IMG/VR virus record: IMGVR_UViG_2721755676_000007
Direction: 5' to 3' (one strand)
DNA from: a virus
Taxonomy: Duplodnaviria > Heunggongvirae > Uroviricota > Caudoviricetes
Length of the DNA stretch: 60,642 bases
Part shown: piece after piece, positions 51,809-59,224 of the stretch
How positions within the stretch are numbered: the first letter of the stretch is position 1
Layout: every line of letters starts with the position of its first letter
The notes under the pieces: generated by a model
Told to the model about the DNA's origin: nothing
The model's database searches: none
Seen by the model: the letters and a program-made list of their open reading frames with translations, nothing else
Program-made: the position numbers and the translations under genes

Positions 51809-51912
51809 AACAACCTCCGTGGTTAACTTGAATTAAGATTAAAACCATGGTTGTTTTTAGTCAACAACCATTTTCGTTTGATGAAATAAAACCTTGGTTG
51901 TACATTTGGTCT
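51809..51912. promoter_or_regulatory. Divergent immunity promoter/operator region (OR-like)
   Basis: Palindromes AACCATGGTT (51843-51852) and AACCTTGGTT (51891-51900) plus CAACAACCAT half-sites between divergent cro and cI starts. Confidence 0.55.
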
Positions 51913-52602
51913 ATGAAAACAACACTCTCAGAAAGACTTAAAGAAGCCAGATTAGCGCGAGGCCTTACACAAAAGGCGCTTGGGGATATGGTCGGGGTTA
52001 GCCAGGCTGCCATTCAGAAAATCGAAACAGGGAAAGCTAACCAAACAACTAAAATCGTGGAGATCGCAAACGCTTTAGGTGTGCGCGCAGAATGGTTATC
52101 TTCTGGCGTTGGAAATATGTCAGACAGTACCGTGCAACCAATACAATCAGCTGTCAGCCATTCAAAATACTTCAAGATTGACGTTCTTGATATAGAAGTC
52201 AGTGCCGGACCGGGTGTCATCAACCGTGAGTTTGTGGAAGTTCTACGCTCGGTTGAGTACTCGTTTGACGATGCTCGTCACATGTTCGATGGCAGGAAGG
52301 CGGAAAATATCCGCATCATTAACGTGCGCGGTGACAGCATGTCAGGGACGATCGAACCAGGTGACCTGCTGTTCGTTGATATCACTGTTAAATCTTTCGA
52401 CGGTGATGGCATCTATGCGTTTCTGTACGACGACACTGCCCATGTAAAACGTCTTCAAATGATGAAGGATAAGCTGCTGGTTATCTCTGATAACAAGAGC
52501 TACTCGCCGTGGGACCCGATCGAGAAAGACGAGATGAACCGGGTGTTCATATTCGGTAAGGTCATTGGAAGCATGCCGCAGACGTACAGGAAGCATGGTT
52601 AA
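51913..52602 (+). CDS. cI: CI-like repressor (HTH_XRE plus S24 LexA-type autoprotease domain)
   Basis: 229 aa from MKTTLSERLKEARLARGLTQKALGDMVGVSQAAIQKIE; C-terminal GDSM Ser and conserved Lys. Confidence 0.85.
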   Translation: MKTTLSERLKEARLARGLTQKALGDMVGVSQAAIQKIETGKANQTTKIVEIANALGVRAEWLSSGVGNMSDSTVQPIQSAVSHSKYFKIDVLDIEVSAGPGVINREFVEVLRSVEYSFDDARHMFDGRKAENIRIINVRGDSMSGTIEPGDLLFVDITVKSFDGDGIYAFLYDDTAHVKRLQMMKDKLLVISDNKSYSPWDPIEKDEMNRVFIFGKVIGSMPQTYRKHG

Positions 52603-52831: not shown

Positions 52832-53212
52832 ATGAGAAAAATCCTAATCGCTGCCATGATGGCATCTCTATTGGCTGGGTGTGCTTCTTCAGGCAACCAG
52901 CAACTCAAAAATGAAACTGAAATTAGTGTCCAGTCTAAACTTCAGGAAGGTAAAACAACCAAGAATGAGGTTAAATCTTACTTTGGTTCTCCTGATGCTG
53001 TTTCATATACTGACAGTGGAAACGAGATCTGGAAGTACGCCTTTGCAAAAGTAAAAGTTAATGGCACCACTTTTATTCCATTCTATGGATTATTCCATAA
53101 TGGAACGAACGGTACGAAAAAAGAACTTACTATTCTTTTTAACGATGACACGATTAAGAAATACACAATGTCAGAAACCCAAATAAACTCGAAATCAGGT
53201 TGGGCTGACTGA
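52832..53212 (+). CDS. Lipoprotein (126 aa) downstream of cI, at the position of lambda rexAB
   Basis: Signal peptide with lipobox LLAGC; followed by an intrinsic terminator. Confidence 0.65.
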   Translation: MRKILIAAMMASLLAGCASSGNQQLKNETEISVQSKLQEGKTTKNEVKSYFGSPDAVSYTDSGNEIWKYAFAKVKVNGTTFIPFYGLFHNGTNGTKKELTILFNDDTIKKYTMSETQINSKSGWAD

Positions 53213-56473: not shown

Positions 56474-56695
56474 ATGGCAGACATAATTGATTCAGCATCA
56501 GAAATTGAAGAATTACAGCGCAACACAGCAATAAAAATGCGCCGCCTGAACCACCAGGCTATATCTGCCACTCATTGTTGTGAGTGTGGCGATCCGATAG
56601 ATGAACGAAGACGACTGGCCGTTCAGGGTTGTCGGACTTGTGCCAGTTGCCAGCAAGATCTGGAGCTTATCAGTAAACAGAGAGGTTCGAAGTGA
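56474..56695 (+). CDS. TraR/DksA-family C4 zinc-finger protein
   Basis: 73 aa with CCECGDPIDERRR...CRTCASCQ four-Cys motif. Confidence 0.7.
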   Translation: MADIIDSASEIEELQRNTAIKMRRLNHQAISATHCCECGDPIDERRRLAVQGCRTCASCQQDLELISKQRGSK

Positions 56696-56905
56696 GCGAA
56701 ATTAACTAGAAGCCAAAGATAAAATCATCGCTGAGCAGGAGAAAATCGCTAACGGAGAAAAGACAGTAAGTCAGTATATGAAAACCGCATGATATCATCA
56801 GATAAAAATCGGTCGTAAAGCGAAATATTAATACCAGAACAAACGAGTCGAGGTAAATTATATTACCTCGATAAATTAACTAAAACTTGCCCGCTATATA
56901 CTATA

Positions 56906-57508
56906 TCATTCAGTATCATCACGCGCGGTCTGTGCATATGTCACTACCGCACCTAATATATTAATTTTCTTTTCAACATAGATAATATTATCGTACTCAT
57001 AATTGCCATACGGATAGCAAATGCGAATATTCTCATGTAGATCGGGGTCATCCACCTCAGCTCCAGAACAACTTTTTGAACTACCGGAAGTATACCGATA
57101 CGGTGCAACATAAGACGATGTCTCTCCAGGCAAAAAATAAGTTAGTGTCGTAAGGGGTATAATCAGAAAAAATCCAGCAAATATGCACATCCCTGCATAA
57201 ACCTTAAGGTATGCTGACAGACTCTTCCAGCCGCTTTGTTTTACTATCCCCTTCTTAACCCAAAACAGAGATAACAGAAAAGCTATTCCCATGCTAAACA
57301 GAATGTAATAGTGGGATATACTCTGATTAAGAAACGTGACCCTGTAGATATCTGCCCGCCACCAGAAGAAAAGGAAAATAAAGATCAGCCCTGAAACTGT
57401 CATGCAAATCAAATAAGGATACGAATCTTTTTTCATGTTTAGCGCCCATAAAATTTTTCCTGACCCGGACAAATTTACCATCCATTTTTTGCGCAGAAAA
57501 TAGCTCAT
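56906..57508 (-). CDS. Membrane protein (200 aa, about four TM helices plus Cys-containing C-terminal domain), AT-rich, antisense to the early-left operon
   Basis: Hydrophobic segments LICMTVSGLIFIFLFFWW, YYILFSMGIAFLLSLFWV, AGMCIFAGFFLIIPLTTLTYFL; local GC clearly below neighbours. Confidence 0.55.
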   Translation of the reverse strand: MSYFLRKKWMVNLSGSGKILWALNMKKDSYPYLICMTVSGLIFIFLFFWWRADIYRVTFLNQSISHYYILFSMGIAFLLSLFWVKKGIVKQSGWKSLSAYLKVYAGMCIFAGFFLIIPLTTLTYFLPGETSSYVAPYRYTSGSSKSCSGAEVDDPDLHENIRICYPYGNYEYDNIIYVEKKINILGAVVTYAQTARDDTE

Positions 57509-57909
57509 TACTTACTGCACAATAATACACAAAATTGCGTAAATTTTTTGCATGGATTTTAGCTCTTTCAGCCGACATTTAAGGGGTAAATAGCATTTCC
57601 TAAAAGCAACTGCACCAACCCAACAGAATGGGCTACCGCTTACGTTGAGAGCAAAAAAGTGTATAGCAGCAATGAACAGCATCCTCGCACTGACGAGGAT
57701 TTCTTTTATCTGAACTCGCTACGGCGGGTTTTGTTTTATGGAGATGATAAATGCACTTCCGAGTCACAGGTGAATGGAATGGAGAACCATTCAACAGAGT
57801 TATCGAAGCCGAGAACATCAGCGACTGCTATGACCACTGGATGCTGTGGGCGCAGATAGCACATGCAGACGTAACCAATATTCGAATTGAAGAACTGAAA
57901 GAACACCAA

Positions 57910-57932
57910 GCCGCCTGATGGCGGTTTTTTCT
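57910..57932 (+). terminator. Intrinsic terminator upstream of xis
   Basis: GCCGCC-tgat-GGCGG followed by TTTTTTCT. Confidence 0.55.
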
Positions 57933-57957
57933 TGCGTGTAATTGCGGAGACTTTGCG

Positions 57958-58176
57958 ATGTACTTGACACTTCAGGAGTGGAACGCACGCCAGCGACGCC
58001 CAAGAAGCCTTGAAACAGTTCGTCGATGGGTACGCGAGTGCAGGATATTCCCTCCTCCGGTTAAGGATGGAAGAGAGTATCTGTTCCACGAATCAGCGGT
58101 AAAGGTTGACTTAAATCGACCAGTAACAGGTAGCCTTTTGAAGAGGATCAGAAATGGGAAGAAGGCGAAGTCATGA
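57958..58176 (+). CDS. xis: Excisionase Xis
   Basis: 72-aa ORF MYLTLQEWNARQRRPRSLETVRRWVRECRIFPPPVKDGREY matching lambda Xis. Confidence 0.95.
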   Translation: MYLTLQEWNARQRRPRSLETVRRWVRECRIFPPPVKDGREYLFHESAVKVDLNRPVTGSLLKRIRNGKKAKS

Positions 58177-59224
58177 GCGCCGGGATTTACCCCCTAACCT
58201 TTATATAAGAAACAATGGATATTACTGCTACAGGGACCCAAGGACGGGTAAAGAGTTTGGATTAGGCCGAGACAGGCGAATCGCAATCACTGAAGCTATA
58301 CAGGCCAACATTGAGTTATTTTCAGGACACAAACACAAGCCTCTGACAGCGAGAATCAACAGTGATAATTCCGTTACGTTACATTCATGGCTTGATCGCT
58401 ACGAAAAAATCCTGGCCAGCAGAGGAATCAAGCAGAAGACACTCATAAATTACATGAGCAAAATTAAAGCAATAAGGAGGGGTCTGCCTGATGCTCCACT
58501 TGAAGACATCACCACAAAAGAAATTGCGGCAATGCTCAATGGATACATAGACGAGGGCAAGGCGGCATCAGCCAAGTTAATCAGATCAACACTGAGCGAT
58601 GCATTCCGAGAGGCTATAGCTGAAGGCCATATAACAACAAACCCGGTCGCAGCCACTCGCGCTGCAAAATCAGAGGTAAGGAGATCAAGACTTACGGCTG
58701 ACGAATACCTGAAAATTTATCAAGCAGCAGAATCATCACCATGTTGGCTTAGACTTGCAATGGAACTGGCTGTTGTTACCGGGCAGCGAGTTGGTGATTT
58801 ATGCGAAATGAAGTGGTCTGATATCGTAGATGGATATCTTTATGTCGAGCAAAGCAAAACAGGCGTAAAAATTGCCATCCCAACAACATTGCATGTTGAT
58901 GCTCTCGGGATATCAATGAAGGAAACACTTGATAAATGCAAAAAGATTCTTGGCGGAGAAACCATAATTGCATCTACTCGTCGTGAACCGCTTTCATCCG
59001 GCACAGTATCAAGGTATTTTATGCGCGCACGAAAAGCATCAGGTCTCTCCTTCGAAGGGGATCCGCCAACCTTTCACGAGTTGCGCAGTTTGTCTGCAAG
59101 ACTCTATGAGAAGCAGATAAGCGATAAATTTGCTCAACATCTTCTCGGGCATAAGTCGGACACCATGGCATCACAGTATCGTGATGACAGAGGCAGGGAG
59201 TGGGACAAAATTGAAATCAAATAA
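58154..59224 (+). CDS. int: Lambda integrase Int
   Basis: 356-aa ORF MGRRRSHERRDLPPNLYIRNNGYYCYRDPRTGKEFGLGRD matching lambda Int. Confidence 0.95.
   Translation: MGRRRSHERRDLPPNLYIRNNGYYCYRDPRTGKEFGLGRDRRIAITEAIQANIELFSGHKHKPLTARINSDNSVTLHSWLDRYEKILASRGIKQKTLINYMSKIKAIRRGLPDAPLEDITTKEIAAMLNGYIDEGKAASAKLIRSTLSDAFREAIAEGHITTNPVAATRAAKSEVRRSRLTADEYLKIYQAAESSPCWLRLAMELAVVTGQRVGDLCEMKWSDIVDGYLYVEQSKTGVKIAIPTTLHVDALGISMKETLDKCKKILGGETIIASTRREPLSSGTVSRYFMRARKASGLSFEGDPPTFHELRSLSARLYEKQISDKFAQHLLGHKSDTMASQYRDDRGREWDKIEIK

Follow-up and report, generated by a model that had tools for sequence, protein, structure and literature searches.

A mobile membrane-protein gene shared by 434-like and P2-like prophages, a candidate for superinfection exclusion

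The IMG/VR virus record IMGVR_UViG_2721755676_000007, a stretch of 60,642 nucleotides that we refer to as the window, ends in a lambdoid, 434-like prophage that adjoins ybhC (59359 onward), the lambda attachment locus. On the minus strand of this prophage, opposite to the early-left (pL) operon, lies an open reading frame (ORF) of 200 aa (56906-57508) that is already annotated, as WP_000120065.1 in RefSeq, and catalogued, and that is functionally uncharacterised. We find that the gene is real, is under purifying selection, has moved between phage families and, in P2-like prophages, sits in a validated anti-phage defence hotspot. Because the same cassette occupies that hotspot, the gene is a good candidate for phage exclusion, and we put forward, as a serious possibility that still falls somewhat short of probable, that its product is a prophage-expressed exclusion or defence protein that works on the periplasmic side of the inner membrane.

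Distribution and movement of the cassette

In P2-like prophages of Escherichia coli, Salmonella and Klebsiella michiganensis, the homolog always lies between the replication gene gpA and the portal gene Q, and 14 of 14 P2-like loci from IMG/VR have the same gpA, portal and terminase neighbourhood. In P2 itself this gpA-gpQ locus carries old and tin and is an anti-phage hotspot (Rousset et al. 2022, PMC9122126). Among the systems catalogued in the same study (Table S5B), System #4 is a single gene with 470 occurrences, described as '3 TM' (transmembrane) and with no Pfam assignment, whose protein is 52% identical to the one described here over 168 aa (BLASTP, E=5e-57). The two belong to the same family, being alike in length, in their three TM helices and in their CSGA...ICYP motifs, and differ in setting, System #4 lying between gpA and gpQ of P2-like phages and the present copy in the exo-xis region of a lambdoid phage. 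The System #4 sequence was not found among the tested constructs in the accessible part of the PMC9122126 supplements, so that its place in the catalogue adds nothing on function. In 186-like prophages, two more copies occupy a site immediately past the integrase.

The company that the gene keeps at these sites was also recorded. Its neighbours in the 186-like prophages are an HTH-HipA-like kinase (434 aa, locus L112, 4622-5926) and an HNH_2 protein (373 aa, locus L110, 4381-5502), which are possible defence cargo and have no solid PADLOC match. The hotspot of the K. michiganensis P2-like prophage (locus L019, 2281-5623, minus strand) holds a 790-aa protein with a weak AAA_16 match and a 279-aa partner, again with no PADLOC match, which may form an uncharacterised two-gene system.

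The lambdoid copies are far more uniform. A 1,061-bp segment around the gene is 98.9-99.9% identical to phages 434, 2B8 and mEp332 and is present at a coverage of at least 80% in 904 of 5,426 complete E. coli genomes (~17%, including O157:H7). Among 217 matching phage records, only five include the cassette, two of 434, two of 2B8 and one of mEp332; other lambdoid phage records match only the 100 bp proximal to ORF55, and lambda, like most other lambdoid phages, lacks the cassette. Within IMG/VR, all 64 lambdoid copies are at least 97% identical, whereas the P2-like copies are 52-80% identical, a difference suggesting that lambdoid phages took up the gene recently and once, from the diverse P2-like pool. 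Protein homologs that are 42-78% identical occur in Salmonella, Klebsiella, Enterobacter, Cedecea and Citrobacter.

Base composition tells of the same mobility. The phage-borne copies are AT-rich everywhere, with 38-44% GC, and lie some 10-15 percentage points below their flanks (38-43% against 53-54% in P2-like prophages), an exception being the K. michiganensis copy L019, where the gene has 44% and the flanks 45%. In the window, the ORF has 39.1% GC and the segment 56696-57750 has 38.5%, against 50.3% in the block from gam to TraR and 46.1% across ORF55, xis and int; only 6.6% of 603-bp intervals within this sequence are equally AT-rich. The original prediction, which was made from the letters of the DNA, had noted this AT-richness and taken it to suggest independent acquisition. 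The contrast is real (39% against 50% GC), and independent acquisition is strongly supported by it together with the recurrence of gene and flanking DNA in unrelated P2-like prophages and the absence of the gene from lambda. The gene has the marks of a moron in the sense of Juhala and Hendrix, being patchily present among relatives and differing in base composition from what surrounds it.

Alignment of the 5′ and 3′ flanks with P2-like prophages gives a mobile cassette of approximately 830 bp (56727..57556, minus strand), in which ~110 bp upstream and ~180 bp downstream of the gene are common to the lambdoid and P2-like contexts. Its source was most likely the gpA-gpQ hotspot of a P2-like phage. 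In the 3′ flank, a plus-strand relic of 15 codons (LEAKDKIIAEQEKIA, 56706..56750) resembles an ORF that stands beside the homolog in the E. coli P2-like locus L016 (6622-6774, minus strand), with 11 of 15 residues identical to LETKDNRIAELEKIA and a blastn identity of 77% over 44 nt. This is weak evidence, and it may indicate that the transfer ran from P2-like to lambdoid phages.

At its present site the cassette has on one side the plus-strand pL-operon genes gam, bet (54278) and exo (55060), then homologs of orf60a and orf63, and last a TraR/DksA zinc-finger gene (56474-56695, 73 aa; Pfam zf-dskA_traR, E=5e-9). Beyond it come ORF55 (57751-57918), xis (57958) and int (58154-59224). The strand and the position between the TraR-like gene and xis that were first proposed for the 200-aa ORF are confirmed, except that ORF55 intervenes before xis and that the coding sequence is likely to be 176 aa. 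ORF114, which phage 434 has between ORF55 and xis, is missing from this prophage (57918-57960). Elsewhere in the prophage, a 126-aa lipoprotein gene (52832-53212, plus strand; MRKILIAAMMASLLAGC...) has 35-39% GC and a weak match to the BamE domain (E=1.6e-4, below the Pfam cutoff). Its place, immediately downstream of a cI-like S24 repressor gene (51847-52602), is that of rexAB in lambda, and the gene is a second candidate for a lysogen-expressed moron.

Gene model, selection and the predicted protein

The true coding sequence is most likely 56906..57436 (minus strand), which starts at ATG 57436 and encodes 176 aa plus the stop. We favour this start because Met25 of the 200-aa ORF does not vary and nearly all homologs, which are 169-180 aa long, begin with it, and because the 24 codons upstream of it are interrupted by an in-frame TAG in a 97%-identical KplE1-like copy (L013) and lack coding conservation in the Salmonella copies. 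These upstream codons (57437..57508, minus strand) are probably non-coding and belong to the 5′ untranslated region and promoter. Database starts disagree, with TTG 57472 in the curated 434 record and ATG 57508 in RefSeq; comparison among homologs suggests that both are probably too long, and the 200-aa start was rejected in favour of ATG 57436.

Values of dN/dS between 0.04 and 0.16 (Nei-Gojobori, against five homologs) place the gene under strong purifying selection, and the ORF is intact in 77 of the 80 copies that IMG/VR contigs carry. These data bear directly on the reading of the ORF as a chance or non-functional frame, or as a decaying remnant, a reading that could appeal to the lack of any database function and to the few copies that are frameshifted or truncated (P0084, L106 and L113). 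Against it stand the low dN/dS and the intact copies, together with motifs that are invariant across proteins only 17-78% identical and a confident AlphaFold2 fold, and we regard it as hardly credible and effectively refuted by selection and conservation. The short family members of ~90 aa are frameshifted or mis-called fragments rather than a one-TM variant.

A hydropathy scan of the 176-aa protein finds three TM segments, at residues 6-26, 40-60 and 79-102. The earlier view of an AT-rich membrane-protein gene is therefore upheld in substance, although with three rather than about four TM helices, the four-TM topology being rejected on the same scan, and with a shorter gene. The loop between TM2 and TM3 (aa 61-78) carries five lysines and the C-terminal 70 aa are net negative, so under the positive-inside rule the protein is predicted to have its N terminus in the cytoplasm and its C terminus outside, with the Lys-rich loop cytoplasmic and a β-domain (aa 103-170, with C123 and C140) in the periplasm. 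The AlphaFold2 model (pLDDT 85 overall and 91 within the domain) consists of three long helices and a five-stranded β-domain, to which is added a short strand from the TM1-TM2 loop that would share a membrane side with the domain. The acidic C-terminal domain of ~70 aa is thus predicted to be a periplasmic, five-stranded β-barrel.

Conservation is unevenly spread over this predicted architecture. Across 39 family members, seven of the eight positions conserved in at least 90% of sequences fall in the predicted periplasmic domain, C123 and C140 among them, and the cytoplasmic loop is the least conserved region; the constrained surface would therefore be the periplasmic one. A cysteine-containing C-terminal domain had been pointed out from the single sequence, and the family alignment bears this out. 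In the model the two cysteines flank one β-hairpin and are well placed for a disulfide, which probably staples the periplasmic domain.

In a profile search of 1.84 billion representatives the family proved small, with 61 clusters at 50% identity, nearly all of them ~170 aa long. Searches of known profiles, suggested at the outset, yielded PHROG 1416, a family of unassigned function whose profile matches no more than the C-terminal 88 aa (113-200 in the 200-aa ORF, E=7e-51), and no significant match in Pfam, NCBIfam or PADLOC. The best that Pfam offered was DUF6057 at E=0.24, and NCBIfam gave no match, a negative that takes in the curated superinfection-exclusion, immunity and NfeD families of both (T4 Imm and colicin immunity, for example). 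A profile search of PDB sequences returned nothing below E=0.37, and Foldseek against viral structures nothing below E=1e-3, with an NfeD-like protein only at E=0.13. Among the closest known types to the predicted OB-like, five-stranded domain are small β-barrels such as the DUF1093 (YxeA-type) and cold-shock domains. The counterpart in phage 434, CPT_434_36 'putative membrane protein', is essentially identical in DNA (98.9-100%), and it, WP_000120065.1 and PHROG 1416 are all annotated as of unknown function. A metagenomic protein of 3074 aa (P0121) contains nine weak repeats that match family profile positions 122-158 (E=4e-8); in Pfam it has only sub-threshold adhesin-like or filamin-like matches.

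Upstream region and terminators

The upstream stretch shared by the lambdoid and P2-like contexts comprises ATTGTGCA-like boxes, then the palindrome TTTTCTGCGCAAAAAA over a weak -35 and then a TGnTAAATT element. In the window, the predicted extended -10 element reads TGgTAAATT (57472..57480, minus strand), which would place the transcription start near 57465. TGnTAAATT is conserved in five copies from both contexts, and the K. michiganensis copy has TACAAT at about the same alignment position. The palindrome, ATTTTCTGCGCAAAAAAT (57484..57501, minus strand), is a possible operator that overlaps the weak -35-like TTTTCT (57495-57500) and is conserved in the E. coli P2-like locus L016. Upstream of it lie the three boxes TTTACGCA, TTTGTGTA and ATTGTGCA (57516..57543, minus strand) at 10-bp spacing, which in a Salmonella copy (L005) are three perfect copies of ATTGTGCA in exact 10-bp register; elsewhere in the window and in the compared loci the motif shows no enrichment. 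Rfam identified no RNA in the intergenic regions, and the chromosomal orthologs lack the whole of this shared upstream region.

Two of the three boxes correspond to a site that the 434 record labels 'CII binding site', with a TTGT-N6-TTGT box at 57519-57532. We did not count this label as evidence, since the pattern occurs at chance frequency, TTGYN6TTGY being observed 13 times in the window where 13.7 are expected. The -10 candidate at CII spacing is not conserved in the P2-like copies, and a lambda-type CII is not known from P2-like phages. A separate box, TTGCGTGTAATTGC (57932-57945), is a full TTGC-N6-TTGC match just upstream of xis, at the position of the pI CII box of the 434 record.

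Downstream, 35 nt past the stop codon, a terminator-like hairpin consisting of TCGAGGTAA-TATAAT-TTACCTCGA and followed by CTCGTTTGTT (56848..56871, minus strand) is kept in the KplE1-like copy L013 and partly kept in the P2-like L016. A GC-rich hairpin upstream of the cassette (57681..57700), which is terminator-like on both strands and is the plus-strand tL4 of the old 434 record of the 1990s, may insulate the cassette. It is the first of two tandem terminator-like hairpins (57681-57731, plus strand), each followed by GG(A/T)TTT(C/G)TTTTAT, that separate the cassette from ORF55. The 434 GenBank record also annotates a 56-aa 'putative membrane protein' at 57512-57682 (minus strand). This call has no Pfam match, overlaps the regulatory repeats and the tL4 hairpin, lies outside the region common with the P2-like copies and is probably spurious.

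The opposite orientation of the gene had been taken to imply a promoter of its own and possible expression in the lysogen. The conserved TGnTAAATT element and the terminator-like hairpin that travels with the gene speak for such a promoter, but a consensus scanner called no sigma-70 promoter on the gene strand, so the case is made from conservation. On this footing we consider both the promoter and expression in the lysogen plausible.

Exclusion and the alternatives

Our tentative proposal runs as follows. The cassette would be a self-contained, horizontally acquired moron, inserted at the xis-proximal edge of the exo-xis region and antisense to the pL operon. It would encode a 176-aa inner-membrane protein in which three TM helices anchor an acidic, OB-like β-barrel domain in the periplasm. 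In the lysogen, with pL repressed, the protein would be made from its own weak or regulated promoter, and during lytic growth convergent pL transcription would oppose the gene. At the periplasmic face the protein would shield the lysogen from other phages, most likely by blocking genome delivery in the manner of P22 SieA, T4 Imm or HK97 gp15.

Several features favour this proposal. The gene is under purifying selection; it occupies the old/tin hotspot of P2-like phages as well as other cargo positions beyond 186-like integrases; it stands alone, with its own conserved upstream region and terminator; and its conservation is concentrated in the predicted periplasmic domain. It also persists where the surrounding phage does not. 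In O157:H7 the gene is intact within a decayed prophage remnant at ybhC, and one E. coli strain has it intact in a KplE1-like remnant, next to phage genes that have become pseudogenes or are broken by insertion sequences (IS). The ybhC prophage of O157:H7 strain 3-5-1 (L023, 1-830) is heavily deleted, with bet fused next to the nin genes and lpxR, encoding a lipid A deacylase, at the other end.

Analogy with characterised systems points the same way. P22 SieA resides in the inner membrane, is 162-164 aa long and has three TM helices (PMC10883804), and the present gene resembles it in standing alone and in encoding an inner-membrane protein of similar size (~160-176 aa for the two) and predicted TM count. 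SieA differs in having no C-terminal β-domain and a long loop after TM1, and in its genome position beside gene 16 in immI; homology was rejected, since hhalign against SieA types A-C gave a probability of 0.2% over 9 aligned columns. A precedent for the orientation is sieB of P22 and lambda, which is likewise an accessory gene on the strand opposite to the pL genes and, according to the P22 annotation, is expressed in the lysogen from its own promoter, features that for our gene are predicted. SieB differs in being an unrelated protein that acts by abortive infection and in lying near N/ral rather than at the xis end.

Other observations weigh against exclusion. The gene has no known phenotype, the scan gave it no consensus promoter, and it shows no homology to any known exclusion or defence protein: beyond the negative comparison with SieA, PADLOC-DB v2 returned no defence-model family at E≤1, and PADLOC gave no robust match for the genes that neighbour it in the hotspots. 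The literature that we searched held nothing on this protein or on an exclusion by 434 lysogens attributable to it. Lambda forms plaques on lysogens of 434 and would therefore probably not be the target if the protein does act in exclusion. The hotspot is likewise an imperfect guide, as it also holds non-defence cargo such as partition systems and cytolethal distending toxin, and only three of eight of its additional systems that were tested proved protective (PMC9122126).

The chromosomal relatives open a different explanation. Six Enterobacter species carry, in an ordinary chromosomal setting, a syntenic ortholog of native GC content flanked by a LysR or GGDEF gene on one side and a gene for an AI-2E transporter on the other, and further chromosomal copies occur in a Klebsiella sp. 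and in Cedecea. The protein might thus be a lysogenic-conversion or fitness protein of the envelope unrelated to phages, serving for example in stress tolerance or in interaction with a component of the periplasm or peptidoglycan, and borrowed from an Enterobacter-type chromosomal gene. The Enterobacter orthologs fit such a housekeeping envelope role at least as well as they fit exclusion, and the non-defence cargo of the P2 hotspot and the retention of the gene in long-decayed prophages agree with it. However, the phage-borne copies are AT-rich, so they are not recent captures from GC-native Enterobacter genes; that they recur in cargo hotspots of two or three types of phage speaks for a function from which phages benefit; and no domain points to enzymatic or transport activity. 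On balance we find this explanation somewhat unlikely, if deserving of attention.

The evidence from the hotspot would serve equally for an abortive-infection or membrane effector that senses an event in the envelope or periplasm, depolarises or permeabilises the inner membrane and kills the cell before phage release. In established systems, TM proteins usually act as suicide effectors, as Rousset et al. note (2022, PMC9122126), and a toxic product would be well served by a weak, apparently regulated promoter bearing operator-like repeats. Yet the gene is single and small, with no sensor partner and no PADLOC match. Those parts of the protein that lie in the cytoplasm are short and little conserved; what is conserved would be on the periplasmic side, where phage cues are few. 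A dangerous toxin would also sit badly with the stable vertical descent of the gene in the Enterobacter chromosome, and we hold this mode of action to be improbable. A still less probable role is that of an orphan immunity protein, which would protect the lysogen from toxins that act on the membrane or in the periplasm, for instance a pore-forming colicin or an effector of type VI secretion (T6SS) or contact-dependent inhibition (CDI).

Returning to exclusion, the fullest form of the proposal, which we offer as a conjecture and with a little more reserve than its core, is that these proteins are a previously unrecognised, single-gene, periplasm-facing exclusion family, unrelated to SieA, Imm and gp15. 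The family would shuttle between P2-like and lambdoid phages, would have been domesticated in Enterobacter, would be switched by a regulator of the three 10-bp-phased ATTGTGCA boxes, and would be present in phage 434 and ~17% of complete E. coli genomes.

Whatever the gene does, it illustrates cleanly how a single cargo cassette can pass from the cargo sites of one temperate phage family to those of another, unrelated one, and three database start codons for it need correcting. If it proves to be an envelope fitness factor, the content of the P2 'defence hotspot' would not all be defence. If it is an exclusion or defence gene, a new and very compact family would join the short list of envelope-level defences. 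Phage 434, a textbook phage, the O157:H7 lineage and about one sequenced E. coli in six already carry a member, which would then matter for the prediction of phage host range and for phage therapy.
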